This document shows, piece by piece, positions 584 to 56,479 of a stretch of DNA of 64,000 nt. Each line of letters begins with the position of its first letter. Positions within the stretch are counted from its first letter, which is position 1. The position numbers were made by a program, and so were the translations under genes. Origin of the DNA: Pyrinomonadaceae bacterium (lineage in GTDB: Bacteria; Acidobacteriota; Blastocatellia; Pyrinomonadales; Pyrinomonadaceae); contig DASWRI010000044.1 of the NCBI GenBank assembly GCA_036403235.1, positions 6,193-70,192 of the forward strand, read 5' to 3'. The notes below the pieces were generated by a model that worked only from the letters and a program-made list of their open reading frames with translations, did no database searches and was not told the origin of the DNA.

Positions 584-1552
584 ATGAAAGCAATCGTTGT
601 CAGAGAATTCGGCGCGCCGGAAGTGATGAAGCTTGAAGAAGTCAAAACTCCCGAAGTCGGCGCTGCGCAAATTTTGGTGCGCGTCAAGGCGGCCGGGATA
701 AATCCGGTCGATACGTATATTCGCGGCGGAAACTATGCGCAAAGACCGCCTCTGCCATACACGCCGGGAAAAGATGCGGCGGGCGTTGTCGAAGCCGTCG
801 GCGCGGGCGTCGAAAACATAAAGGTCGGCGATAGAATTTACACCGCCGATTCAGTGACCGGAACTTACGCCGAATTCGCGCTCTGCGAAGCGAATCAGGT
901 TCACAAGCTGCCCGAAAACGTTTCGTTCGAGCAGGGCGCGGGCGTTTTCGTGCCTTACGCGACGAGCTTTCGCGCTTTGTTTCAAAAGGCGAAAGGAAAA
1001 TCGGGCGAAACAATTCTCGTTCACGGCGCGTCGGGCGGAGTCGGCATCGCTTCGGTTCAATGGGCGAAAAACGCCGGTCTGAAAGTTATCGGGACGGCCG
1101 GCTCGGAAGACGGAAAACAACTCGCTAAAGAGCAGGGCGCGGACTACGTTCTCGACCATTCGGACGAAAATTATCTCGCCGAAATCAAAGAAATCACGGG
1201 CGGAAAAGGCGTCGATATAATTTTGGAAATGCTCGCGAACGTAAATTTGCAAAAGGATTTCGAAATTCTGGCGATGTTCGGGCGCGTGACAATCATCGGC
1301 AATCGCGGAAGTCTCGAATTCAACCCGCGCGCCGTGATGGGCAGAGACGCCGTCGTTTACGGCATGGCGCTGTTTAACGCGCCGGAAGCGGAAATGCGCG
1401 AAATTCAAAACGCGATTTACGAAGGTTTGAGCAAAGGCTTTTTAAATCCGGTCGTCGGCAAAACCTTCCCGCTCAGAGAGGCCGCGGCCGCGCATCACGC
1501 CGTCATCGAAGAAAAAGCGTTCGGCAAAACCATTTTAGTAAGTGATAAGTGA
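584..1552 (+). CDS. NADPH:quinone oxidoreductase / zeta-crystallin-type medium-chain dehydrogenase
   Basis: MKAIVVREFG N-terminus and GASGGVGIASVQ nucleotide-binding motif. Start moved from 524 to in-frame ATG 584, the usual N-terminus for this family. Confidence 0.85.
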   Translation: MKAIVVREFGAPEVMKLEEVKTPEVGAAQILVRVKAAGINPVDTYIRGGNYAQRPPLPYTPGKDAAGVVEAVGAGVENIKVGDRIYTADSVTGTYAEFALCEANQVHKLPENVSFEQGAGVFVPYATSFRALFQKAKGKSGETILVHGASGGVGIASVQWAKNAGLKVIGTAGSEDGKQLAKEQGADYVLDHSDENYLAEIKEITGGKGVDIILEMLANVNLQKDFEILAMFGRVTIIGNRGSLEFNPRAVMGRDAVVYGMALFNAPEAEMREIQNAIYEGLSKGFLNPVVGKTFPLREAAAAHHAVIEEKAFGKTILVSDK

Positions 1553-2334: not shown

Positions 2335-2410
2335 CGGTGGAAAGTGAAAAGTGGTAAGCGAAAAGTTAAAAATAAATATCCGCTTACCACTTACCGTTTA
2401 CCACTTACCG
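2335..2410. repeat. heptamer-word inverted repeat, GTGAAAA/GGTAAGT family
   Basis: cggtggaaagtgaaaagtggtaagcg, then a 20-nt AT loop, then cgcttaccacttaccgtttaccacttaccg. Confidence 0.8.
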
Positions 2411-2422
2411 TTTAAAAAACTG

Positions 2423-3979: not shown

Positions 3980-4038
3980 CGGTAAGTGGTAGGTGGATAA
4001 AGTTTTTTAACTTTCCACTTACCACTTTTCACTTTTCG
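3980..4038. repeat. heptamer-word inverted repeat, GGTAAGT/GTGAAAA family
   Basis: cggtaagtggtaggtggataaag, loop, then ctttccacttaccacttttcacttttcg, directly after the CHRD gene stop. Confidence 0.8.
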
Positions 4039-8099: not shown

Positions 8100-10076
8100 A
8101 TGAAAAAGATATTTTTATTAGCAATTTTCGCGCTCGTTTTCAGCGTGAATGCTTTCGCGCACGAAACTTTCAAGCTCGTCAGCAGCGAAAATAAAACTCT
8201 GAAATTGGAGGATTTGATAAAAATCGAGGCGCAGCGAACGCTCGGCAAAATAGATAAAACAAATCTGACTTTTACGGAAAAAGAAATTCGTCTGGTCGTT
8301 TTGACCGGCCCGGAAGACGATATGCTTTCTTACCGCATTCAGGGCGTCAGAAACCCGAATTTAGTCGTCCCGACGGGCGCAACGCTGAAGATTTTATTCG
8401 TTAATATGGACGAAGACATGCGCCACGATATTCGTTTCGGCCACGTCGAAGGCGATTTTCCGGTCGCGCCGGAAATCAAGGAGACGGCCGGAAGCGAGAG
8501 ATTAACCGCTAAATCCGAAGACGGAGTTTTGCAGGCGGAAGAAATCGTCATTCAGTCAATCGAAGACGGAGCTTATAAATATTTCTGTTCCGTCAGAGGA
8601 CACGCCAAAGGCGGAATGTGGGGAAATATTCTGGTAAACGTCAAACCCGGCGCTGATTTGAAAAAAGCCGAGAAAACCGTTCACGTTCATACCGCAGATG
8701 AAGATATGGATATGAACGAAAAAAAGACGGACGAAAAAAAATCAAACGACAATATGAAGGACATGAAAATGGACGATAAAAAGCCCAGTGATATGTCCGA
8801 CATGAAAATGGATGATAAAAAGTCCGACGATATGCCCGGTATGAATATGTCGAGCAGCAAAATGGTAATGTCCTCGGTTACCGACATCAATTCTCCGATG
8901 ACGCGCGAGAGTTCCGGCACTTCCTGGGTGCCGGACTCGACGCCGATGTATGCGACGACGAAGATGTTCAAAGACGGCGGAATGTTGATGTTTCACGGCA
9001 ATATGTTTCTGCGCTATACAAATGTCGGGTCGAGCCGCGATTTTAGCGTCGGCGGCAGAGGCGATAATGAAAGATTCGACGCGCCGTCGATGTTTATGTT
9101 GATGTATTCAAAGCCTTTAAGCGGGAAATCGCAAATCGGTTTGCGCGCGATGCTGAGTCTCGACCCGATTATCGAGCGCGGCTTCGGTTATCCGCTGCTT
9201 TATCAATCGGGCGAAAGTTTTCGCGGCGAGCCGATTCACGACCGCCAGCACCCGCACGATTTTGTTAGCGAGCTTTCGGCGACATATTCTTATAAAATTA
9301 ACGACAAGCAATCATTTTTCTTTTACGCCGGTTATCCGGGCGAACCCGCGCTCGGCCCGCCGACCTTTATGCACCGGTTTTCGGCCATGAACAACCCGGA
9401 CGCGCCGCTTTCGCATCACTGGCAGGATTCGACGCACATCACTTTCGGCGTTTTGACGGCGGGCTACAATTTCGGAAAATTCAAGCTTGAAGCGAGCGCG
9501 TTCAAAGGCCGCGAGCCGAACGAAAATCGCTGGGATTTCGACGCGCCGAAGCTCGATTCTTTCAGCGGCCGGCTTTCTTTTAATCCGACAAAAGAATGGG
9601 CCTTTCAAATTTCTTACGGTTATCTGAAAAATCCCGAACCGGGCGAGCCGGACTTGAAAATTTTAAGACGCACGACCGCTTCGGCAATTTACAATAAAAA
9701 ATTCAGCGACACAAAAAACTGGGCCAGTAGTTTTGTCTGGGGACAAAATTACGGAAACGGCGAGCGCACCAATGCTTTTCTGTTCGAGTCGGATTTTACA
9801 TTCGATAAAAATTCGATTTTCGGGCGCGTCGAAAGAGTGCAGAAATCCGGTCACGAACTCGTTTTGGACGAAATCGACCACGATAAAATCTTTTGGGTCG
9901 GCGGCTATTCAATCGGTTATCTGCGCGAGCTTTATAAAAACAAAAATTGGAACGTCGGGCTCGGCGCACAGGCTACTCTTTATCAAAATTCAATCGGATT
10001 AGTTTCGTATTACGGCGGCACGAATCATCAGGGCTGGCAGGTATTTCTGCGCATTCACTCTTCGATGATGAATTAA
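8100..10076 (+). CDS. cupredoxin / Met-rich linker / outer-membrane beta-barrel fusion protein
   Basis: Signal peptide. Type-1 copper-like ligand spacing C-x4-H-x4-M in YKYFCSVRGHAKGGMWGNILV. Two 39-bp tandem repeats encode DMKMDDKK(P/S)xDM (8760-8837). C-terminal roughly 390 aa has beta-barrel-like alternation. Confidence 0.7.
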   Translation: MKKIFLLAIFALVFSVNAFAHETFKLVSSENKTLKLEDLIKIEAQRTLGKIDKTNLTFTEKEIRLVVLTGPEDDMLSYRIQGVRNPNLVVPTGATLKILFVNMDEDMRHDIRFGHVEGDFPVAPEIKETAGSERLTAKSEDGVLQAEEIVIQSIEDGAYKYFCSVRGHAKGGMWGNILVNVKPGADLKKAEKTVHVHTADEDMDMNEKKTDEKKSNDNMKDMKMDDKKPSDMSDMKMDDKKSDDMPGMNMSSSKMVMSSVTDINSPMTRESSGTSWVPDSTPMYATTKMFKDGGMLMFHGNMFLRYTNVGSSRDFSVGGRGDNERFDAPSMFMLMYSKPLSGKSQIGLRAMLSLDPIIERGFGYPLLYQSGESFRGEPIHDRQHPHDFVSELSATYSYKINDKQSFFFYAGYPGEPALGPPTFMHRFSAMNNPDAPLSHHWQDSTHITFGVLTAGYNFGKFKLEASAFKGREPNENRWDFDAPKLDSFSGRLSFNPTKEWAFQISYGYLKNPEPGEPDLKILRRTTASAIYNKKFSDTKNWASSFVWGQNYGNGERTNAFLFESDFTFDKNSIFGRVERVQKSGHELVLDEIDHDKIFWVGGYSIGYLRELYKNKNWNVGLGAQATLYQNSIGLVSYYGGTNHQGWQVFLRIHSSMMN

Positions 10077-12464: not shown

Positions 12465-12675
12465 AATGAAATCAGAATCCGAACGTTTGATAAGAAAAAG
12501 AATATTATCGAAGAGGTGGACGGCAATCTTAGCTAAACTGCCAAATTTAAGCTAACATGTTCCGGTAATTTATGTCAACGTGTTTTAACAATATTTGTTA
12601 TTTTTAACGTAAAATTTTTGTAAATTCTCAACTTTGATTTTTGCAGCGTAATTTTTTAGTCTAATTCTTTGTCAA

Positions 12676-12744
12676 AGTCTGGAGTCTCAAGTCTGAGGTC
12701 TTGAGTCAAAGATTTTCCGACTTGAGACTTCAGACTTGAGACTC
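12676..12744. repeat. heptamer-word inverted repeat, AGTCTNA family
   Basis: agtctggagtctcaagtctgaggtcttgagtc, then an 11-nt loop, then gacttgagacttcagacttgagactc. Ends 10 nt before ATG 12755. Confidence 0.8.
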
Positions 12745-12754
12745 GATTTTATTT

Positions 12755-15174: not shown

Positions 15175-15320
15175 GCGAAAAGAAAAGACAGAAAAAAGAC
15201 GGCGAGGGCAAAAACAAGAATAATCAGCGAATGCGCGCCGCCAATGATAAAGACACGGGCGCGAAAAACGGCATCGATACCCGCGAGGACGATAAATCGG
15301 CGGGAAAATCGAAAAATTAG
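15171..15320 (+). CDS. 49-aa highly charged microprotein candidate, translationally coupled
   Basis: ATG 15171 overlaps the upstream TGA (ATGA). Translation MSEKKRQKKDGEGKNKNNQRMRAANDKDTGAKNGIDTREDDKSAGKSKN. Below the ORF-track cutoff. A hairpin follows immediately. Confidence 0.3.
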   Translation: MSEKKRQKKDGEGKNKNNQRMRAANDKDTGAKNGIDTREDDKSAGKSKN

Positions 15321-15380
15321 CTGAAAAGTAAAAAATGAAAACTGAAAGGTGAAAACAACTTTCAGTTTTCATTTTTCAGC
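15320..15380. repeat. heptamer-word inverted repeat, TGAAAAN family
   Basis: gctgaaaa gtaaaaa atgaaaactgaaag, loop, then ctttcagttttcatttttcagc. The 5-prime arm carries exactly one extra heptamer relative to the 3-prime arm. Confidence 0.85.
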
Positions 15381-15417
15381 TCTCACTTCCTTCCGGTTTC
15401 GGTGATAAAATATTTCT

Positions 15418-19930: not shown

Positions 19931-19985
19931 GGAAGTGAAAAGTGAAAAGTTTAAGAATCTTTTCTAAACTTTTCACTTTTCACTC
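19931..19985. repeat. heptamer-word inverted repeat, GTGAAAA family
   Basis: gaagtgaaaagtgaaaagttt, loop aagaatcttttct, then aaacttttcacttttcactc. The loop is nearly identical to the copy at 48846-48886. Confidence 0.85.
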
Positions 19986-20315: not shown

Positions 20316-20357
20316 CTCTTTCACTTTCCACTTTTCACTTTTCGCTTTTCACTTGAG
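20316..20357. repeat. solo arm of CACTTTT heptamer words
   Basis: ctctttcactttccacttttcacttttcgcttttcacttgag. No adjacent complementary arm. Confidence 0.7.
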
Positions 20358-20449
20358 TTGCTTTGGACATTGCGCGGAAAAGTTGGCACAATAGGCAAGT
20401 AAATTTTACGTTCCCGAAAGAAAATTCAAATCAAAACGGAGAAAAAGGT

Positions 20450-20974
20450 ATGAGCTTAGGTCAGAAAGAACAAAGTATGAGTCTCGGGCAGATTATCGCC
20501 GCCGAGCTCAAGCAGGAAGCCATTTCGACGCGCAAAATGCTGGAACGGATTCCCGCCGACAAACTCGCGTGGAAGCCGCACGAAAAGTCGATGACAATTG
20601 AGCAGCTCGCCGGTCATATCGTCAATATGGTTAGCTGGACGAGCGTCACTCTAAAACAGGACGAGCTTGATTTTGCAAAGATGGACTACAAGCCGCGCGC
20701 CTATACGGACGCTTCGCAATTGACCGAAGATTTTGACAAAAATCTGGCCGAATCCCTCGAAACTCTCGCCGGTACTTCGGACGAAACGATGGCGACAAGC
20801 TGGACTATGCGAAACGGCGAGCAGATATTTTTCACGATGCCGAAAGCCGTCACGATGCGAACTTTCGTGATGAATCACGTCATTCATCATCGCGGCCAGC
20901 TTTCGGTTTATCTGAGACTTCTCGACATTCCGCTTCCGTCCATCTACGGGCCGTCGGCGGACGAGGGAATGTAA
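20450..20974 (+). CDS. DinB-superfamily (DinB_2-like) metal-dependent protein
   Basis: HIVNMVSW and MNHVIHHRGQLSVYLR His motifs. Start at ATG 20450 with GGAGAAAAAGG RBS. A second in-frame MSLGQ lies 9 codons later. Confidence 0.8.
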   Translation: MSLGQKEQSMSLGQIIAAELKQEAISTRKMLERIPADKLAWKPHEKSMTIEQLAGHIVNMVSWTSVTLKQDELDFAKMDYKPRAYTDASQLTEDFDKNLAESLETLAGTSDETMATSWTMRNGEQIFFTMPKAVTMRTFVMNHVIHHRGQLSVYLRLLDIPLPSIYGPSADEGM

Positions 20975-21835: not shown

Positions 21836-21916
21836 GAATTACGAATTTCAAATTACGAATTACGAATCCAGAACTTATTTCTTTAATTCATAATTCGTAA
21901 TTTAAAATTCGTAATT
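21836..21916. repeat. heptamer-word inverted repeat, GAATTAC family
   Basis: gaattacgaatttcaaattacgaattacgaat, loop, then aattcataattcgtaatttaaaattcgtaatt. Fills the spacer up to ATG 21922. Confidence 0.85.
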
Positions 21917-22205: not shown

Positions 22206-22313
22206 GTCATTCGTCATTTGTCCGTGGTCAGTTGCTGGTTGAATTTAATTCGAGAGCGTAATTAAAGCTCAAGCCCGCAACTGACCACTGACCACTGACC
22301 ACTGACCACTGAC
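22206..22313. repeat. heptamer-word inverted repeat, CTGACCA family
   Basis: 5-prime arm GTCATTC GTCATTT GTCCGTG GTCAGTT GC. 3-prime arm GCAA (CTGACCA)x4 CTGAC. Ends 4 nt before ATG 22318. Confidence 0.9.
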
Positions 22314-22317
22314 AAAA

Positions 22318-22839
22318 ATGGAACACTTAAAAAAACTTATACGCGAAGTGCCTGATTTTCCGAAAGAAGGCATCAATTTTTACGATATTACGACGCTTTT
22401 GAAAGACGCCGAAGGACTCCGGCAGACGATTGACGCGCTGGCCGCGAATTACAAAGGCGAGCAGATTGACACGGTAATCGGCGTCGAATCGCGCGGTTTT
22501 ATTTTCGCCGCGCCGCTTGCGTATCACTTAAACGCCGGGTTCGTGCCCGTCCGCAAGCCGAAAAAGCTTCCGGCCGAAAAAATTTCCGTCTCGTATGATT
22601 TGGAATACGGTCAGGACACGCTCGAAGTCCACAAGGACGCCATCGGCGAAGGTCATCGCGTCTTGATTGTCGATGATTTGCTCGCGACCGGCGGAACGGC
22701 GCGCGCGACGGTCGATTTGGTCGAAAGTCTGGGCGGAAAAATCGTCGGTCTGATGTTTCTCGTCGAGCTGAATTTCTTAAACGGACGCCGAAAATTCGAC
22801 GGCTACGACGTCCGCTCGTTATTAAATTACGATTCTTAA
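22318..22839 (+). CDS. apt: adenine phosphoribosyltransferase
   Basis: 173 aa with PRPP motif [13 protein letters not shown]. Confidence 0.93.
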
Positions 22840-22884: not shown

Positions 22885-22958
22885 GCTCCCGTAGCTCAGC
22901 TGGATAGAGCGTTCGCCTCCTAAGTGAAAGGCCGCAGATTCGAATTCTGCCGGGAGCA
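22885..22958 (+). tRNA. tRNA-Arg (anticodon CCU)
   Basis: Acceptor gctcccg/cgggagc. D arm gctc-agctggata-gagc. Anticodon stem ttcgc/gtgaa with loop CUCCUAA. T arm gcaga-ttcgaat-tctgc. 74 nt with no encoded CCA. Confidence 0.9.
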
Positions 22959-23022: not shown

Positions 23023-26000
23023 CTACGGAACAAAAGCATTTTCAGTCGGAACGTCGGTCGAAACGCCGAACTGGAAAGCCGTCACGCCGGCGCTCGACCT
23101 CATCAGATACCAGACGCCGGTCGATGGCCTGAAGACCGCGATATCGGCGCGCCCGTCGCCGTCGTAATCGGCCGGAACGGGTTTGTCTTCGGCTATTCCG
23201 AAAGCGTTTATCGTAAACGAGCCGTTCGAGCTGTTGATGATATACCAGACACCGTTTGACGGTCGATAAACGGCGATGTCGGTTTTTCCGTCGCCGTCGA
23301 AATCGGCCGGTGCGGGAACATCGGTCGATATTCCCCAGCGCGTCGCCCGCTGCGCATTATCGATGCTGCTCTGATACCACCAATCGCCGGTCGAGGGCCG
23401 AAAGATGGCCGGGTCGACTTTGCCGTCGCCGTCGAAATCACCGCGAACGGGTTTGTCGCCCGCCAGACCGAACGGGATAATCGAAACCGCTCCGGTCGTG
23501 CCGAGTCGATACCACGTGTTGTTCGACGGGCGGAAAACGATGAAATCGGCTTTTCCGTCCGAATCAAAATCGCCCGGACGCGGCACGTCGCCGCTCGCGC
23601 CCCAGTGAACAAAATTCTGCGTGTTGTTGATGCTCGACAAAAACCACCAATCGCCCGAAGCCGGACGGAAAATGCCGATGTCGGTTTTGCCGTCGCCGTC
23701 GTAATCAGCGGGCGCGGGCACGTCGCCGGCGAGACCGAACGTCTGCTCGGCAACGGTTGCGTTGCTCAATAATTCATACCAGCGATTGGTCGAAGGCCGG
23801 AAAGCCGAAACGTCGGCGCGGCCATCGCCGTCGTAATCGAATAACGTCAAAAGCGGCGCGGAGGCATTTAAAAGACGCTTGACTCTGACTCCGGAAACGC
23901 CGTTGACCTTTGTAAACTCGCCGCCGATAAGAATTTTTCCGTCGGTTTGCAGATTTATATCCCAGACCGATGTATTGGTCTCGCCGCCAAAACTCAAATC
24001 GAACGAGCCGTTTGCGTTAAGACGGGCGATTCCGATTCGATATTGATTGCCGACTGTGCTCATCGCGCCGCCGATAAGAATTTTGCCGTCCGGCTGAATC
24101 TTGACGGCTAAAATCGTCGCGTTGGCCGTCTGGACGAACGACGTATCAAGCGTGCCGTCGGCATTGAGACGCCCGACTTTCTGCATATTGCTGTTTCCGT
24201 TTAAGGCCGTAAACTGACCGACTAAAACGACCTTGCCGTCCGTCTGCAAATCGATGTCATAGACGACGTCGTTGGCGCCGCCGGGCGGATTAAACGTATT
24301 GTCGAGCGTGCCGTCGGCGTTCAGGCGCGCGATTCTGCCCCGAATGTTTGACGCGATAGTCGAAAAAGTGCCGCCGATTAAAAATTTCCCGTCCGGCTGA
24401 ACAAGAACTTTGTTAACCAGTCCGGGCGCCTGAACGCCGATAAAAGTGTTGTCGAGCGAGCCGTTGGAATTTAATCTTTCGATAATTTTGCTGTTCGAGC
24501 CGCCGACCGTAATAATCTTTCCGTCGGGCAATACGGCAATATCGTTGATTCCGATTGTTCCGCCCCAGGTAAAGCCGGTATCGCGCGAGCCGTCAGGATT
24601 GAGTCTGACGAAATTGACGGCGGTTCCGATAATTAAAATTTTACCGTCCGGCTGCAGAGCAATCGACCGGATGGTAGGATTGCTCGTCGTAAAAGTCCCG
24701 TTGTAATAAGGCACAAAAGATGTGTCGAGACTTCCGTCGGCGTTCAGACGAGCGAGCGATTGACGGACAACGCCGTTGACCGACGGAAATTCGCCGGCAA
24801 TCAGGATTTTTCCGTCCGGCTGCTGCAAAATCCGCGTAACGATTCCCAGTCGTCTGACTTTGACATCAAAAGCGCTATCGGTTGTGCCGCCCGCATTCAA
24901 GCGAAGAATCGGATTTGCGCCGCCGACTAAAGGGTAGATTTGACCGCCGATAAGAATTTTCCCGTCCGATTGCAGCTCGATATCGAAAATTGGTATTAGC
25001 GCGGCGGCCTGCGCGTTGTTTGAAAACGAATTATCGAGCGTGCCGTCGCTGCTGAGCAGCGCGAGATTTCTGATATTTACCGCGTTATAAGAAGGAAAAT
25101 CGCCGGCGATGAAAATTTTTCCGTCGGGGCGAATGATTATATCGTTTATACCGTAGGAGGAGCTGCCCGCGCCAAAATTATTGAGGTTAAAATTCAAATC
25201 CAAACTTCCGTCCGAGTTTATGCGCGAAATCCTTCCTTGCTGAAATCCGTTGACGAAGGTAAAGCTGCCGCCGATGATGAGCTTTCCGTCGGCCTGTATT
25301 TTAACGACTTCAATCGTCTGATTGACCGTCACCAGAGAAAAGCCGGAATCGACTGAACCGTCGGCGTTGAGCCTTCTCACGTAGTTCTGCGGGCCGGACA
25401 TCCCGGTGATGAACACAACTTTTCCGTCCGGCTGCACTTCGATGTCTTTGATGAGCCCGATGCCGGTCGCCGAAAACGAATTGTCGGGCGTGCCGTCGGC
25501 GTTAAATTTAGCGATGTTCCGGCCGAATTCGCCGCCGATAAAAAATTTATCGTTCGGCAGCACTTCGATGGTGTAAATGTTGCTGTCCTGCGGCACGGGC
25601 AAATTAAAAGAAGAATCAATCGTCCCGTTCGGATTAAGACGCATGACGGCGGGCGCAAAAACTCCGTTGATGCCGTATAAACTGCCGGCGACGATAATTT
25701 TCCCGTCCGATTGGAGGCCGAGCGCGAGAACTCTCGCCCCGAGCGAGCTGCCGTTAAAAAAAACCGGCGGATTAAACGACGTATCGACGCTGCCGTCCGC
25801 GTTAAGCCGTCCGACTCCGTTCGCCGCCTGTCCCTGCACGTCTGTAAAAATGCCGCCGATGAGAATTTTGCCGTCCGGCTGCGTTTTAACAACATAGACA
25901 AGCCCGTTGGTCGTGCCGCTAACCGCAGCGTTAAAGCTCGCATCGACTTCGCCCGCCGCCTTTGCCGCCGAAACAAAGATTGCGCTCAACAGAACGCAGA

Positions 26001-26046
26001 ATGCCGGAATTAAAAATGCGCGCAGAAGCTTTTGATATTGATTCAT
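23023..26046 (-). CDS. secreted giant repeat protein: delta-60-type beta-propeller repeats plus six C-terminal FG-GAP/VCBS-like repeats
   Basis: Signal peptide from ATG 26046 (MNQYQKLLRAFLIPAFCVLLSAIFVSAAKA). About 13 repeats of the LNADGSLDTSF...QPDGKILIGG type. C-terminal six D(Y/F)D(G/S)DG(K/R)xD repeats. Confidence 0.8.
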   Translation of the reverse strand: MNQYQKLLRAFLIPAFCVLLSAIFVSAAKAAGEVDASFNAAVSGTTNGLVYVVKTQPDGKILIGGIFTDVQGQAANGVGRLNADGSVDTSFNPPVFFNGSSLGARVLALGLQSDGKIIVAGSLYGINGVFAPAVMRLNPNGTIDSSFNLPVPQDSNIYTIEVLPNDKFFIGGEFGRNIAKFNADGTPDNSFSATGIGLIKDIEVQPDGKVVFITGMSGPQNYVRRLNADGSVDSGFSLVTVNQTIEVVKIQADGKLIIGGSFTFVNGFQQGRISRINSDGSLDLNFNLNNFGAGSSSYGINDIIIRPDGKIFIAGDFPSYNAVNIRNLALLSSDGTLDNSFSNNAQAAALIPIFDIELQSDGKILIGGQIYPLVGGANPILRLNAGGTTDSAFDVKVRRLGIVTRILQQPDGKILIAGEFPSVNGVVRQSLARLNADGSLDTSFVPYYNGTFTTSNPTIRSIALQPDGKILIIGTAVNFVRLNPDGSRDTGFTWGGTIGINDIAVLPDGKIITVGGSNSKIIERLNSNGSLDNTFIGVQAPGLVNKVLVQPDGKFLIGGTFSTIASNIRGRIARLNADGTLDNTFNPPGGANDVVYDIDLQTDGKVVLVGQFTALNGNSNMQKVGRLNADGTLDTSFVQTANATILAVKIQPDGKILIGGAMSTVGNQYRIGIARLNANGSFDLSFGGETNTSVWDINLQTDGKILIGGEFTKVNGVSGVRVKRLLNASAPLLTLFDYDGDGRADVSAFRPSTNRWYELLSNATVAEQTFGLAGDVPAPADYDGDGKTDIGIFRPASGDWWFLSSINNTQNFVHWGASGDVPRPGDFDSDGKADFIVFRPSNNTWYRLGTTGAVSIIPFGLAGDKPVRGDFDGDGKVDPAIFRPSTGDWWYQSSIDNAQRATRWGISTDVPAPADFDGDGKTDIAVYRPSNGVWYIINSSNGSFTINAFGIAEDKPVPADYDGDGRADIAVFRPSTGVWYLMRSSAGVTAFQFGVSTDVPTENAFVP

Positions 26047-26327
26047 TTCTTTATAAAATACGCGATTTATATTGAAATATCCACAAATTTTTTTTGGCCG
26101 GCCGGATTGCTTTTTATTTATTTGAAAATATTTTTCGAAATTTTTGGAAAGCAAAAGCGAATAAAACTTTCTAATAAGTAACGGAAGATAACGGTGGTCA
26201 AGCGCAATGGCAAGCAATTTGGCTTAACTTGGGGATTCCGTGTTCTGTTCACAATCTTCGTATAAAATGTCTTGAGCCGTATTTGACCGAATGCGGCTTT
26301 TTTCTTTTTAAAATTTCCAAAATTCGT

Positions 26328-26537
26328 TCGTGCAAATTGTTAAGGCGCTCGTGCAAAAGAATAAATCACGTCTGCAAAACGATAAACCGTCCGTGCAAAC
26401 GAATAACTCGCTCGTGCAAACGAATAAACCGTTCGTGCAAAAGAATAAATGCTTCGTGCAAAACTGTAAACGGCTCGTGCAAAACTGTAACTCGCTGGTG
26501 CAAAGAAATCTTTCGTTCGTGCAAAAATTTGTACGGG
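26328..26537 (+). repeat. array of 10 direct repeats with exact 21-bp period (core TCGTGCAAA)
   Basis: Core starts at 26328, 26349, 26370, 26391, 26412, 26433, 26454, 26475, 26496 and 26517. Consensus TCGTGCAAAnGAATAAAnCGn. Confidence 0.92.
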
Positions 26538-39655: not shown

Positions 39656-40804
39656 ATGAAACTTGACGTTCTCATAATCAGAATCGGATTCGTCGCATTG
39701 CTGATGGTGCTCGGCTTTATCCTCAATCCGTTTGAAAAAACGGCTCGGCTCGGTTTTGACTCAATCGGTAACGATATTCGACCGTTTTTGTCGGCCTTGT
39801 TCGGCGGCATTATCGCGCTTTTTATTATCGCCTTTGAAATGCGTGTGCGGCGCGTTTCGCTGAAAACTCTTATCGGCGCGGCCATCGGCTCGATTTTGGG
39901 AATTTTGGGCGCGTTTTTAATCGGCGTTCTGATTTCGATTCAAAAAGAAGCGGCGGTTTCAGCCGAAATGCAGACGTTCTTGACGATTTCACTGGCGTTT
40001 TTTATGGGCTACATCGGTCTCATGGTCGGCGCGGCGAAAGGCGAATATCTTGATTTATCGGTTCTGGGCGGGATTTTTTCCGACAAAAACGTCAAGCGCG
40101 ACTGCAAAGTCCTCGACACGTCCGTCATCATCGACGGGCGCATCGCTGACGTTGCCGAAACCGGATTTTTGGGCGGAACTTTGATAATTCCGCAGTTTAT
40201 TTTGACCGAGCTGCAGCAGGTCGCCGATTCGCCCGACTCGTCAAAACGCCAGCGCGGGCGACGCGGGCTCGACATGCTCCAGCGCCTGCGCAACAATTCG
40301 AAAATCGACATCCAGATTATCGAAACCGATTTTCCGCAGGTGCGCGAAGTCGATTTGAAACTAATCGAGCTCGGCAAACAGCTCGACGCCGTTATCGTCA
40401 CCAACGATTTTAATTTGAACAAAGTTTCGCAGCTTCGCGGCGTGCAGGTTTTGAATATCAACGAGCTCGCCAACGCGCTCAAACCGGTCGTTCTGCCGGG
40501 CGAAGCGATGCGCGTTTTTGTCTTGAAAGAAGGCAAGGAATACAATCAGGGCGTCGCATATCTGGACGACGGAACAATGGTCGTCATCGACAACGCGCGG
40601 CGGCTTATCGGCAAAACCGCCGACGTCGCGGTGACGAGCGTGTTGCAGACGACCGCCGGAAAAATGATTTTCGGGCGTCTTTGGGAAGAAAAAGACGAAA
40701 ATTACGAAAACTCGCCGAACATTCACGATTCGCGTGCGACCGGTTTCAGAAAAACCGCGCGCGATATGCAGAGCGTCAGTTTTATTCCGAATAACGAAGA
40801 ATAA
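39656..40804 (+). CDS. membrane-anchored PIN/TRAM-domain protein (YacL-like)
   Basis: Four N-terminal TM helices, a PIN block VLDTSVIIDGRI...TNDFNL, and a C-terminal TRAM-like beta domain. Confidence 0.8.
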   Translation: MKLDVLIIRIGFVALLMVLGFILNPFEKTARLGFDSIGNDIRPFLSALFGGIIALFIIAFEMRVRRVSLKTLIGAAIGSILGILGAFLIGVLISIQKEAAVSAEMQTFLTISLAFFMGYIGLMVGAAKGEYLDLSVLGGIFSDKNVKRDCKVLDTSVIIDGRIADVAETGFLGGTLIIPQFILTELQQVADSPDSSKRQRGRRGLDMLQRLRNNSKIDIQIIETDFPQVREVDLKLIELGKQLDAVIVTNDFNLNKVSQLRGVQVLNINELANALKPVVLPGEAMRVFVLKEGKEYNQGVAYLDDGTMVVIDNARRLIGKTADVAVTSVLQTTAGKMIFGRLWEEKDENYENSPNIHDSRATGFRKTARDMQSVSFIPNNEE

Positions 40805-40878
40805 GTGAAAAGTGAAAAGTGACAGGTGATAGGTTTTGTTTTCACTTATCACTTTTTAATTATCACTTATCACTTTTT
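40803..40878. repeat. heptamer-word inverted repeat, GTGAAAA/GTGATAA family
   Basis: aagtgaaaagtgaaaagtgacaggtgatagg, loop, then ttcacttatcactttttaattatcacttatcacttttt. Occupies the entire yacL-ispD spacer. Confidence 0.9.
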
Positions 40879-41592
40879 ATGAACGTTGCGATTATAGTTG
40901 CCGGCGGAAGCGGAACCAGATTCGGCGGCGAAATCCCGAAGCAGTTTGTCGAAATTTGCGGAAAGCCGCTCGTCGCGCACACGCTCGATGCGTTCGAAAA
41001 TTGTTCTTCGATTGACGAAATCGTCCTCGTTTTGCCCGCCGTTGAGCTCGAAAATTTCAGAAAAAAAAATAACTCGATTAAATTAAAAACGATTGTCGCG
41101 GGCGGAAAAACCCGCGCCGAATCGGTTTTTAACGGTCTGCAGGCTGTCTCCGGCAAAGCGGAAATCGTCGCCGTTCACGACGGCGCGCGCCCTCTGGTTT
41201 CCGCCGAAGAAATTTCCCGTACAATCGAAATGGCGAAAGAGACGGGCGCGGCGTGCCTGGTCGCGCCCGTCAGCGATACGATAAAAAAAGTTTCCGGCGG
41301 AAAAATAATCGAAACCGTCGACCGCGAAAACTTACGCCGTGCTCTGACGCCGCAGGCATTTCGGCTGGAGATTCTGCAAAAAGCGTTCGATGCGGCCGAT
41401 TTGAGCGAAGCGGCGACCGACGAATGTTTTCTGGTGGAAAAAGCGGGCTTTGAAATCGCGACGGTCGAAGGCAGCGCGAAAAACATCAAGATTACGACCC
41501 GCGAAGATTTGATTTGGGCAGAAGTTTTTTTAAGAGAGAAGTCGGATAATGGATGCCAGATGTTAGAATCCGGCTTCTTTTCTAAAATCTGA
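40879..41592 (+). CDS. ispD: 2-C-methyl-D-erythritol 4-phosphate cytidylyltransferase
   Basis: MNVAIIVAGGSGTRFG N-terminus. Start moved to ATG 40879. The ORF-track extension only translates the repeat (FHLSLFNYHLSLF). Confidence 0.9.
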   Translation: MNVAIIVAGGSGTRFGGEIPKQFVEICGKPLVAHTLDAFENCSSIDEIVLVLPAVELENFRKKNNSIKLKTIVAGGKTRAESVFNGLQAVSGKAEIVAVHDGARPLVSAEEISRTIEMAKETGAACLVAPVSDTIKKVSGGKIIETVDRENLRRALTPQAFRLEILQKAFDAADLSEAATDECFLVEKAGFEIATVEGSAKNIKITTREDLIWAEVFLREKSDNGCQMLESGFFSKI

Positions 41593-51392: not shown

Positions 51393-51413
51393 TTCAACAA
51401 CTCCCGCATTCTT

Positions 51414-51644
51414 TTTTCAGACCTCATCGTAAAGTTTTCAACGGTCAGAAAATCATTTTCAACGTGCAGAAAATACTTTTCGACACTTCAAAAATCATTT
51501 TCAACACTCCGAAAAGTCTTTATGAGACGTCGAAAAATTTATTTGACATACAGAAAACCTTTTGTGACGCTCAGAAAATCTTTTGCAGCACGTCGAAAAT
51601 CTTTTGCGACATACGAAAAACTTTGTGCGAAGCCTCGCAAAATC
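51414..51644 (-). repeat. array of 11 direct repeats with exact 21-bp period (minus-strand unit aGATTTTCnnnnGTnnnnAAA)
   Basis: Plus-strand units start at 51414, 51435, 51456, 51477, 51498, 51519, 51540, 51561, 51582, 51603 and 51624. Lies between the coaD stop and the VOC start. Confidence 0.92.
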
Positions 51645-51692
51645 TAAAAAACAGAATTTCTAAAAAAATTTCGGCTTTGAATTGTTTTTCAT

Positions 51693-52187
51693 TTAAGACG
51701 ATTTCAATTTATCGCGCATTTTTAGCTCGACCGATTCGGGCACGAGACCTTCGACGCGGCCGCCGAGCGTGAAAATTTGTTTCAAAAGATTCGATGAAAC
51801 ATACGAATATTCTTCGGCCGCCATCAGAAAAACCGTCTCGATGCTCGGTTCAAGGCGACGGTTCATCAAAGCCATCCGCAGCTCGTATTCGTAATCGGAA
51901 ACGGCGCGAATGCCGCGCACAATCGCCGTCGCGCCGCGTTTTTTTGCAAAATCGGCGGTCAGACCGGAAAAGCCGTCGACAATCAGACGGCATTCTTGGC
52001 TTTCGATTTGAGGCAGAATTTCTTCAATCATACGGCAGCGTTCTTCAACGGAAAACATCGGATTTTTGTCGGGATTATTTAAAACGGCGATGATGATTTC
52101 GTCAAAAAGCGGCAGGCTTCGCTTGATAATGTCGAGATGACCGTTGGTTAAAGGGTCGAACGAACCGGGAAAAATTGCGCGGCGCAT
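51693..52187 (-). CDS. coaD: phosphopantetheine adenylyltransferase
   Basis: MRRAIFPGSFDPLTNGH from ATG 52187. The ORF-track extension translates the repeat (FTFHFPLFTLHLL). Confidence 0.92.
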   Translation of the reverse strand: MRRAIFPGSFDPLTNGHLDIIKRSLPLFDEIIIAVLNNPDKNPMFSVEERCRMIEEILPQIESQECRLIVDGFSGLTADFAKKRGATAIVRGIRAVSDYEYELRMALMNRRLEPSIETVFLMAAEEYSYVSSNLLKQIFTLGGRVEGLVPESVELKMRDKLKSS

Positions 52188-52193
52188 ATTTAG

Positions 52194-52252
52194 TAAGTGT
52201 AAAGTGAAAAGTGGAAAGTGGAAAGTGAAGAAAAGGTTCTTCAACTTTTCAC
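52194..52252. repeat. heptamer-word repeat, NAAAGTG family (six tandem words, short return arm)
   Basis: GTAAGTG TAAAGTG AAAAGTG GAAAGTG GAAAGTG AAGAAAA ... cttttcac. Fills the spacer between the TPR lipoprotein gene and coaD. Confidence 0.85.
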
Positions 52253-55941: not shown

Positions 55942-56172
55942 ATGCAAAAGAAATTAACGATTACGATTGACGAGCGCGTTTACGAAGGTCTGCAAACGGT
56001 TGTCGGGCGCGGGAAAATCAGCCAGTTTATTGAGGTTTTGCTGCGTCCGCACGTTTTGAAACAGGATTTGGACGCAGCTTACAAGGAAATGTCTGAAGAC
56101 GAGGCGCGTGAAACCGAAGCGTTGGAATGGTCGGAAGCGACAATTGGAGACGTAAATAATGAAACGTGGTGA
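55942..56172 (+). CDS. ribbon-helix-helix-type antitoxin candidate
   Basis: 76 aa. KLTITIDERVYEGL beta-strand/helix start and an acidic C-terminal tail. Overlaps the toxin start by 14 nt. Confidence 0.6.
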   Translation: MQKKLTITIDERVYEGLQTVVGRGKISQFIEVLLRPHVLKQDLDAAYKEMSEDEARETEALEWSEATIGDVNNETW

Positions 56173-56479
56173 AGTCTGGTGGGTGAATTTCGAGCCGGCT
56201 ATCGGCGGCGAAATCAAAAAACAGCGTCCCGCCGTTATCCTGAGCAACGACGTTTCCAACAAATATCTCAACCGCGTTCAAGTCGTGCCGCTTTCGAGTC
56301 AAATTGACAAACTTTATCCGAGCGAGGCTTACGTCCAATTCGGCGGAAAACAGGCAAAAGCCTTAGCCGACCAACTGACAACCGTCAGCAAACAGCGTCT
56401 GCTAAATAAAGCCGGACATTTATCAAAAGCAGATGTTGAGCAAGTTGAAAGAGTAGTTAAGATACAGCTTGATTTATAA
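56159..56479 (+). CDS. mazF: MazF/PemK-family type II toxin endoribonuclease
   Basis: MKRGEVWWVNFEPAIGGEIKKQRPAVILSND...VVPLSS. 106 aa. Confidence 0.9.
   Translation: MKRGEVWWVNFEPAIGGEIKKQRPAVILSNDVSNKYLNRVQVVPLSSQIDKLYPSEAYVQFGGKQAKALADQLTTVSKQRLLNKAGHLSKADVEQVERVVKIQLDL

Follow-up and report, generated by a model that had tools for sequence, protein, structure and literature searches.

A phased array of 21-bp repeats upstream of a VOC-family gene in Pyrinomonadaceae: iteron- or operator-like elements, or an intergenic minisatellite

Introduction

As a rule, long intergenic tandem arrays in bacteria are written off as products of slippage or serve solely as typing markers. Among the described systems that come closest to the repeats reported here are the iterons of Rep_3-type theta plasmids, known among others in pPS10, R6K, F and P1 (incA), and the ARG boxes, the operators of ArgR/AhrC, which are 18-bp palindromes placed 3 bp apart (21 bp centre to centre) and which usually occur in twos. 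The mycobacterial MIRU/VNTR elements have units of 46-101 bp, are dispersed at dozens of loci and often contain small overlapping ORFs. The enterobacterial REP/BIME elements are 35-40 bp long, are present in hundreds of copies per genome and follow no strict helical period. Phased binding sites for a regulator are exemplified by BvgA at Pptx, where six weak head-to-head dimers are spaced at 22 bp along a single face of the DNA and the last one abuts the -35 element (PMC7250471).

We analyzed a 64,000-nt stretch of DNA from a Pyrinomonadaceae bacterium (hereafter, the window), which contains two tandem arrays of 21-bp units. The main subject of this report is the array located between coaD and a gene of the VOC/glyoxalase family (array 2); the other, array 1, is used for comparison. 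A literature search returned nothing on such arrays in Acidobacteria.

Results

Anatomy of array 2

Periodicity was scanned over the whole 64-kb window as self-identity at shifts of 5-60 bp in windows of 126 bp. Only two regions exceeded the threshold, both with a period of 21 bp: array 2, with a self-identity of 0.67 at the 21-bp shift (segment 51414-51632), and array 1, with 0.75 (segment 26324-26533; Table 1). The maximum among 40 block shuffles was 0.48, and the best other region of the window reached 0.57. Tandem Repeats Finder called period 21 at 51435-51624, and this call and our reading of the sequence together confirm the preliminary description of eleven units in a 21-bp register between coaD and VOC. 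The units start at 51414, 51435 and onwards to 51624 in strict 21-bp steps when the array is read in the plus-strand register (51414-51644); in the VOC-sense register it spans positions -249 to -19 counted from the ATG, or 51641 to 51411 in the window.

The window consensus on the plus strand is TTTtCGACACtCcGAAAAtct, and the unit is an imperfect 18-bp palindrome plus 3 bp, as in TTTTCAACGGTCAGAAAATCA and TTTTCAACGTGCAGAAAATAC. Dyad symmetry extends over the whole unit (TTTTC-N8-GAAAA plus 3 bp, p about 0.001), and the junction palindrome GAAAATCATTTTC described earlier at 51448-51460 is correct. Ten units are clear, and the unit at 51414 (TTTTCAGACCTCATCGTAAAG) is weak in the window; across species, this same unit is the best conserved of the array. 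Within the window, five columns are invariant versus 0.75 expected under random scatter of mismatches (p < 0.0002), a test that is weakened by the non-independence of the units.

Two other origins for the repeats were rejected. No 7-bp sub-period links the arrays to the abundant heptamer repeats of this genome, which rules out derivation of either array from those repeats. The units are arranged head to tail without unique spacers and no cas genes were found among the neighbours scanned, thus the array is not a CRISPR.

Table 1. Features of the two array loci (positions in the window).
Feature	Positions	Strand	Remarks
ncRNA-like element with intrinsic terminator at its end (GCCGTATTTGACCGAATGCGGCTTTTTT)	26128-26305	plus	array 1 begins about 20 bp later
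Array 1	26324-26533	plus	ten 21-bp direct repeats (tCGcTCGTGCAAAAgaATAAA)
VOC/glyoxalase-family gene, 125 aa	51015-51392	minus	directly downstream of array 2
Promoter-proximal block GAAAACTTTAYGATRAGGTCTGAAAAAAGAATGCGGRAGTT...ATG	51393-51452	minus	kept in all five array-bearing species; contains the last two units
Shine-Dalgarno-like GGGAG	51401-51405	minus	8 nt before the VOC ATG
-10-like hexamer TACGAT	51426-51431	minus	start of the last unit, 34-39 nt before the ATG
Array 2	51411-51644	minus	eleven head-to-tail 21-bp units; coaD/VOC spacer
Terminator-like hairpin and T-run TGCGAGGCTTCGCA CAAAGTTTTT	51626-51639	minus	within the most distal unit
AT-rich spacer past the coaD stop	51645-51692	minus	weak hairpin, then TGTTTTTT; conserved with L209
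coaD (phosphopantetheine adenylyltransferase, 164 aa)	51693-52187	minus	upstream of array 2

Genomic context and flanking elements

The VOC gene is followed by a class I/II aminotransferase gene. Pfam analysis assigned only housekeeping functions to the neighbouring genes and revealed no DNA-binding, regulator, rep or par genes adjoining either array; mobile-element genes are likewise absent from the vicinity of array 2. The unit starting at 51414 is separated from the VOC ATG by 21 nt, and in the VOC-sense register the array ends 19 nt from the ATG. The -10-like hexamer has the counterparts TATGAT or TATGTT in relatives, and we regard this conserved TAYGAT as a candidate -10 promoter element. 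No sigma-70 consensus promoter was called in array 2; the consensus scan passed over TACGAT because its -35 region is poor, and the sigma-70 promoter and terminator scan as a whole gave results no better than those for shuffled sequences. The Shine-Dalgarno region is predicted by RNAalifold to pair with AACUUUAUG in the last unit; since this helix is invariant, covariation cannot test it.

Array 2 in related genomes

The nearest species-representative genomes are Chloracidobacterium-like and Pyrinomonadaceae-like metagenome-assembled genomes with 57-73% identity of the aminotransferase, and contigs of relatives were chosen via VOC homologues 80-85% identical to the window protein. Comparison of the coaD-VOC spacer among relatives, which had been proposed in the preliminary description, showed that four further species of Pyrinomonadaceae (L206, L209, L210 and L211) have a 21-bp array directly in front of VOC, so that the earlier contention that array 2 is not one-off slippage holds.

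The VOC proteins of the five array-bearing species are only 80-96% identical. All five arrays are anchored at ...CTGAAAAAAG, ending 18-21 nt before the ATG, and are in identical register when counted back from this shared anchor. The proximal three or four units and the 5' leader are orthologous in the five species (about 80-100% conserved). The distal array boundary is common to the window and L209; both array ends are thus orthologous in this pair, which indicates that the array is old. In L206, L210 and L211, an extra 125-aa secreted-looking ORF splits coaD from the array, therefore the array travels with VOC and not with coaD.

The interior of the array is subject to turnover. The window has 11 units, and L206, L209, L210 and L211 have 16, 13, 10 and 11 units, respectively. 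A type-A unit (TTTTCTGCAYGTTGCRTAAAG) was expanded in L206, in L209 and, in diverged form, in the window; in L210 and L211 the expanded unit is of type B (TACGATGMGSTCTGCGTAAAG, or with the ending ...GTACTT). TAAAGTA, a 7-mer at the junctions, is found in both orientations, which alternate in L209-L211.

Other relatives carry few units or none. L208 has only two units; L207 has no array and its coaD and VOC overlap; L005 also has no array and its coaD stop overlaps the VOC start (TAAATG). The array is absent from L003, L004 and L006-L012 as well, and in L007 the spacer is occupied instead by a heptamer-repeat hairpin. The coaD-VOC gene order is the same in close relatives with no array or with 0-2 units. 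Given the 0-2 units in L005, L207 and L208, the array is dispensable, and the overlap of coaD and VOC in array-less relatives makes their co-transcription probably ancestral. In two further assemblies the spacer is 100% identical to that of the window and thus adds nothing on variation.

The copy numbers observed at this locus across species (0, 2, 10, 11, 11, 13 and 16), together with the amplification of different unit types in different lineages, which resembles concerted evolution, are what a tolerated, functionless minisatellite could produce. According to this explanation, slippage and unequal recombination resize the 21-bp array, and the period of 21 survives only since whole helical turns spare the phasing of the flanking promoter. 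However, copy number is bimodal, either 0-2 or 10-16, and the bacterial deletion bias should have erased 230-340 bp of neutral DNA. The conservation pattern described below bears further on this explanation.

Array 1 and its relation to array 2

Array 1 lacks dyad symmetry (p 0.6), in agreement with the earlier observation that its junctions do not form palindromes. Two other species conserve it upstream of the NAD(P)HX repair gene: L212 (on the contig of L210) has 12 units and L213 (on the contig of L206) has 13. All 35 units from the three species are in phase and share the core TGCA (T8 in 34/35; G9, C10 and A11 in 35/35), while the GC content of the array is 42% in the window versus 61-63% in the relatives. 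The ncRNA-like element that precedes array 1 is roughly 165 nt long and about 90% identical in the three species, whereas the neighbouring protein is only 70-76% identical; no credible Rfam match was obtained for the element or the surroundings of array 1 at E <= 1. The L213 locus contains an insertion of roughly 300 bp with terminal inverted repeats, which parts array 1 from the gene.

The two arrays are alike in their period, number of units (10-16), orthologous conservation and possession of a short symmetric invariant core, and both are placed between a terminator-like hairpin and the next gene. Their profiles were compared in all 42 combinations of phase and orientation against a column-permutation null. 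Similarity was at chance in the window (p 0.23) and in 15/15 cross-species pairings (p at least 0.14), while the within-array controls were significant (p <= 0.009). The resemblance of 12 of 21 positions noted in the preliminary description is therefore no better than that of permuted columns, and its proposal of a family of elements stands for architecture and conservation and falls for sequence. Similarly, the shared period is borne out, both arrays being strictly 21 bp, while the same polarity relative to the downstream gene means little because the array 2 unit is dyad-symmetric. A 7-mer common to units of L212/L213 and L206, TCTGCAC, was dropped from consideration, as the estimated probability of sharing it by chance is about 0.04 before multiple testing. 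We conclude that arrays 1 and 2 are kin in architecture, not in sequence or structure.

With both arrays at hand, two explanations based on the repeat length itself can be assessed. As 21 bp equal seven codons, the arrays might encode a small heptad-repeat protein on either strand. Some reading frames do cross the arrays without a stop, and in L212 and L213 ORFs over array 1 were predicted by gene callers; but no frame is open in every species, L213 contains a stop codon in frame, the peptides implied for different species bear no relation to one another (FARTVYS versus RADAAEQ), and the plus-strand ORF over array 2 runs antisense through the entire VOC gene. We find a coding function scarcely credible. 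Intrinsically curved DNA, in which bending of the upstream region by phased A/T tracts would modulate the promoter with no specific protein involved, is very improbable as well. The units of the window do each carry a T-run and an A-run (1.55 runs of at least 4 per unit) every two helical turns, but the two tracts of a unit are 7 and 14 bp apart and thus mutually out of helical phase. Moreover, the density of A/T runs decreases to 0.40-0.45 per unit in L210/L211 and to 0.15-0.17 in array 1 of L212/L213, where the period and the core persist. A-tract curvature was accordingly rejected as a conserved property of the arrays, since A/T-run density is not kept.

Constraint on phase and position

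Using a leave-one-out position weight matrix at offsets from -10 to +10, 60/61 pooled units of array 2 were assigned to offset 0. Some length changes within units cancel out, and the phase is held despite heavy sequence turnover. Arrays 1 and 2 together have 95/96 units in phase, although the short flanks show indels between species. In the 61 pooled units of array 2, four positions are nearly invariant, namely T1 (60/61), A18 (60/61), purine-7 (61/61) and pyrimidine-12 (61/61), and they are placed symmetrically around the centre of the unit; positions 2-6 and 13-17 are free to vary. That the same columns recur in independently remodelled arrays is harder to dismiss than the invariant columns of the window considered by themselves.

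This pattern bears directly on the minisatellite explanation. A single process would cover two unrelated arrays of equal period, and our searches found no trans factor, dispersed copies or link to gene function. Yet such a process does not account for four nearly invariant columns in independently evolving arrays whose neighbouring columns are saturated with change, nor for the tight phase of the units beside flanks that vary in length. We therefore consider a functionless minisatellite unlikely, and array 2 looks like a selected docking array rather than the product of random slippage. Each of the two arrays is conserved among species, locked in phase and constrained at specific positions, which makes them more interesting than a slippage product.

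Symmetry of the unit in DNA and in RNA

In the dyad register of array 2, 65.9% of cells pair, versus 34-53% when the partner is slid (58 distinct units). Covariation beyond column composition is marginal in the same set, as the observed score is reached in 15/500 shuffles. The palindromy of array 2 is thus real and resides in the consensus, not in covariation. The distinction matters for an explanation in which the array acts as a structured leader or intercistronic RNA. The array would be transcribed with VOC, either from coaD or from an upstream promoter, and its series of hairpins would act, as REP/BIME or MIRU elements do, on mRNA stability, read-through or ribosome access.

Several observations are in line with such an RNA. 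The sense strand folds better than dinucleotide shuffles in the five species (z -2.9, -6.9, -3.8, -8.2 and -5.3), the invariant helix predicted by RNAalifold covers the Shine-Dalgarno region, the array approaches the ATG to 19 nt, and the coaD/VOC overlap in array-less relatives makes an operon transcript plausible. On the other hand, the antisense strand folds almost equally well, as expected of any DNA palindrome, and fold strength differs widely among the species (from -0.27 to -0.41 kcal/mol per nt). The covariation term of RNAalifold is only -1.2 kcal/mol; pair 8-11 alone covaries, probably from linkage of the two unit types, and ten units carry A7/C12, an A-C mismatch at the otherwise invariant 7/12 pair. 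A terminator-like hairpin at the distal edge precedes the array, and its last unit contains the conserved -10-like TAYGAT. Rfam profiles matched a single tRNA in the whole window at the gathering score and neither array. Finally, the predicted RNA of array 1 is unstructured, folding worse than shuffles (z +1.2 to +2.4), and a structured RNA therefore cannot explain both arrays. In view of these points we judge the RNA explanation distinctly unlikely.

Searches for further copies and related sequences

The genome-wide family envisaged in the preliminary description gained no new members, as a search of about 286 kb from this clade turned up no other 21-bp array. Position-weight-matrix scanning of the same 286 kb for dispersed units yielded about 11 array 1 units outside the arrays versus 7 expected, which is no excess; for array 2 there were about 20 versus 5 under a mononucleotide shuffle, only a small excess. 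A pattern scan of the window returned nothing outside array 2, even with 2-3 mismatches allowed. In a pattern scan of metagenomes, the matches listed were mostly unrelated AT-rich 21-bp satellites, and the contig of the window was not among them. When matched patterns were run on viral contigs, period 20 gave 57 stretches and 35 long arrays, period 21 gave 90 and 34, and period 22 gave 92 and 17; there is thus no general preference for period 21 in viral contigs, and the metagenome matches reflect the way they were selected. To our knowledge, the motifs of parS, the CodY, ARG and TyrR boxes, NtrC sites, sigma-54 promoters, IHF and Fis do not fit.

A BLAST search of 72,556 plasmids with the spacer as query produced one match, to the 4.2-kb L. 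reuteri plasmid NZ_CP104441.1. This plasmid carries 4.3 perfect 21-bp repeats (ATACTTTTTTGCACGTTGAAA) directly upstream of a Rep_3 initiator gene and preceded by 11-bp repeats, which is a classic iteron origin, and the window unit TTTTCTGCACGTTGAAAATGA is 18/21 identical to its iteron. Taken literally, this match would make array 2 a set of plasmid-type iterons, that is, sites for a Rep_3-like initiator left by an integrated replicon or serving as a copy-control or centromere array. The sole database match having the same period and a similar unit speaks for this idea, but the likeness is confined to one unit and to low-complexity T/A arms and is inflated by both sequences being repeats; we therefore take the plasmid as an architectural precedent and not as a homolog. 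The arrays of the relatives and array 1 gave no iteron matches, and there was no phage match. The surroundings contain no rep, par or mobile-element gene, and array-less relatives have this housekeeping gene order too. Thus, we give hardly any credence to strict plasmid-type iterons at this locus.

Discussion

A proposed model of phased protein-binding sites

In kind, array 2 may be grouped with iteron- or operator-like phased repeats, or with intergenic minisatellites. The repeat structure, phase, symmetry, position-specific conservation and orthology of the array are direct observations; we infer from them protein binding, action on DNA rather than RNA, and VOC as the target. Our tentative preference, held short of conviction, is that array 2 is a row of phased, dyad-symmetric putative protein-binding sites acting on the VOC promoter region.

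As a cis-acting DNA element, the array would comprise about 11 (10-16 in relatives) individually weak dyad-symmetric sites, each putative site being an 18-bp pseudo-palindrome with a 3-bp linker. Since 21 bp correspond to two helical turns, all sites would be exposed on one face of the DNA. The row of putative sites would stretch from the terminator-like hairpin into the core-promoter and ribosome-binding region of VOC, and an oligomerising dimeric protein could coat it cooperatively, the coating setting VOC transcription either as an activator or as a repressor or roadblock. Array 1, under this model, would be built on the same plan, independently of array 2 and with TGCA as its core. The model is patterned on the way in which iteron arrays and BvgA-type arrays of phased dimer sites work, and each of its mechanistic steps beyond the sequence anatomy of the array is an inference.

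The binding-site reading accommodates the orthologous arrays found at one site with a common anchor in five species, the phase that both arrays keep despite sequence turnover, the in-register dyad symmetry of the array 2 units, and the symmetric, position-specific conservation amid varying columns. A7/C12 is symmetric for a protein dimer but a mismatch in RNA, and a two-fold symmetric DNA reader would tolerate TAAAGTA in both orientations. Composition and A-tract content drift while core and period stay, and the geometry has precedents in the L. reuteri plasmid iterons and in BvgA at Pptx. Other observations count against the reading. No DNA-binding gene adjoins either array by Pfam, and the scan for sigma-70 promoters called none of consensus type within array 2. 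Beyond the four positions, the half-site differs between the unit types (TTTTCTGCA... versus TACGATGCG...), and copy number ranges over 10-16 with 0-2 units in the close relatives L005, L207 and L208. As isolated sites are missing elsewhere in the 286 kb, a dedicated binder would have a single locus, and two arrays with different cores would need two binders or one very degenerate binder.

A broader and more doubtful generalization is that Pyrinomonadaceae chromosomes carry hitherto undescribed "chromosomal iterons", i.e. locus-specific arrays of 10-16 sites spaced by two helical turns, with their own short symmetric cores, conserved among species at orthologous intergenic positions. Such arrays might seed a protein filament or coat by which the neighbouring gene would be switched or would be insulated from the terminator upstream of it, with selection acting on phase and a few contact bases while the remainder turns over.

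The exact period of two helical turns and the handful of symmetric bases, both kept across several species while the rest of the arrays changes, are what selection acting on geometry leaves behind. Should a protein coat the arrays, they would represent a natural chromosomal counterpart of plasmid iterons or synthetic operator arrays, and an entry point to gene regulation in Acidobacteria, a dominant soil phylum in which regulation is poorly studied. If the arrays are neutral, they would indicate that helical phase alone can filter the repeat lengths that survive beside promoters.

Comparison with known systems

Array 2 resembles the mycobacterial MIRU/VNTR elements in being an intercistronic tandem repeat within an operon-like cluster, with one orientation to the genes and lineage-variable copy number, but its unit is 21 bp and the two loci are unrelated in sequence. 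With REP/BIME it shares extragenic palindromic units located after a gene end, sometimes in alternating orientation (TAAAGTA in L209-L211); unlike them, it showed no dispersed many-copy family in the 286 kb scanned. The geometry of an 18-bp palindrome plus 3 bp is that of the ARG boxes, whose AT-rich consensus TGAAT-N-ATTCA is, however, absent from array 2.

The likeness to iterons lies in tandem units of 19-22 bp at a spacing of about two helical turns, in a core that is conserved while the remainder varies, and in an array directly upstream of a gene. Correspondingly, both arrays have a period of exactly 21 bp with 60/61 and 35/35 units in phase and the cores T1/R7/Y12/A18 and TGCA. In contrast to plasmid iterons, array 2 is chromosomal, in a conserved housekeeping gene order without an initiator gene or origin features; only housekeeping genes adjoin it, and array-less relatives have the same order. 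It also has 10-16 copies, whereas iterons have 4-9, its units are dyad-symmetric, whereas iterons are purely direct repeats, and the downstream gene encodes a VOC enzyme.

The BvgA arrays of Bordetella (Pptx, Pfha) differ in that the six sites of Pptx are unrecognisable as repeats, while array 2 comprises 10-16 recognisable repeats with turnover of unit types. What they would share with array 2, if its units are binding sites, is a row of weak head-to-head dimer sites that are two helical turns apart on one DNA face and that run to the core promoter; dyad-symmetric units at this spacing are found in array 2, with its period of 21, its unit symmetry (p about 0.001) and its 65.9% pairing versus 34-53% out of register.

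Array 2 locus in related genomes

In one relative (L208), the region before the VOC/glyoxalase gene contains two 21-bp units only, both of which obey the skeleton of four near-invariant, dyad-symmetric positions of the array 2 unit (T1/R7/Y12/A18). This two-unit stretch may be either a seed for array 2 or what remains of it. Three relatives with array 2 (L206, L210 and L211) possess a 125-aa ORF between coaD and the array, characterized by a signal-peptide-like N-terminus and without a match in Pfam; the window and L209, another array-bearing relative, lack this ORF. In the corresponding neighbourhood of L206 and L209, the MazF/PemK toxin gene of the window is replaced by a PIN/PhdYeFM toxin-antitoxin pair.

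Coordinates of repeats, genes and RNA-like elements in the window and in the compared sequences
Feature	Location	Strand	Remarks
125-aa ORF	L206 9236-9613; L210 9380-9757; L211 1-303		
Two 21-bp units	L208 9935-9985		CTTTCCGAAAGTTGGAAAAGC and CTTTCCGAAGACTTGGAGAAG
ncRNA-like element	window 26128-26305	+	
ncRNA-like element	L212 9508-9700; L213 80-272		
DUF5122/FG-GAP beta-propeller gene	window 23023-26217	-	1,000-1,064 aa
Insertion	L213 about 620-905		TGTAGGGGCA...TGCCCCTACA
Heptamer-arm hairpins	window 2335-2411, 12674-12750, 15319-15381, 19934-19984, 21837-21916, 40800-40880		
Heptamer-arm hairpin	L007 9420-9545		
One-sided heptamer run	window 22280-22313		(ACTGACC)5; precedes ATG at 22318
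One-sided heptamer run	window 20319-20354		(TTTCACT)5; precedes start at 20363
One-sided heptamer run	window 4005-4037		
One-sided heptamer run	window 52195-52229	+	(AAGTGRA)5; immediately upstream of coaD
Short tandem repeat	window 8760-8849		period 39, x2.3
Short tandem repeat	window 20440-20492		period 27, x2.0
MazF/PemK toxin gene	window 56159-56479		
Long 21-bp arrays, among the matches listed	L138 1504-1714; L136 142-518; L131 442-595; L178 1-340; L200 21-356; and others		metagenome contigs
Plasmid origin repeats	NZ_CP104441.1 1411-1440; 1487-1577		11-bp x2.7; 21-bp x4.3

A candidate ncRNA next to array 1

Array 1 begins directly 3' of an ncRNA-like element of ~165 nt, the 3' end of which is a strong intrinsic terminator. 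The element has no match in Rfam and is ~90% identical across three species, compared with 70-76% for the adjoining Nnr proteins. It is probably an undescribed ncRNA beside a tRNA gene. The beta-propeller gene is placed between the tRNA (22885-22958) and the element in the window and is missing at the corresponding position of L212 (the array 1 locus on the L210 contig), where the tRNA lies directly 5' of the element. At L213, the array 1 locus on the L206 contig, array 1 is separated from the Nnr gene by a ~300-bp insertion with terminal inverted repeats, which resembles a miniature transposable element.

Heptamer hairpins and other repeats

Long hairpins with both arms made of tandem heptamer runs, e.g. 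(AAGTGAA)n ... (TTCACTT)n, are placed 3' of gene ends in a terminator-like manner. Their predicted energies range from -27 to -46 kcal/mol, and they appear to be a lineage habit, with an example in L007, a relative that has no array. Heptamer runs without an inverted partner are located from a few to ~16 nt 5' of start codons. The one-sided runs may be 5'-leader elements. In some of those in the window no classic Shine-Dalgarno sequence is visible. The two short tandem repeats have periods that are multiples of three, and are probably inside coding sequence.

Comparison with other 21-bp repeats

Among the matches listed, the unrelated metagenome contigs with long 21-bp arrays have a GC content of 0.43-0.55, and their units are likewise pseudo-palindromes consisting of a T-run, a GC-rich centre and an A-run; the frequency of such arrays carries no meaning, because the contigs were chosen by the search pattern itself. 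On the L. reuteri plasmid NZ_CP104441.1, the 11-bp and 21-bp repeats are placed upstream of a Rep_3 gene, which is missing from the PLSDB gene table, and the iteron is identical to one array 2 unit at 18 of 21 positions.
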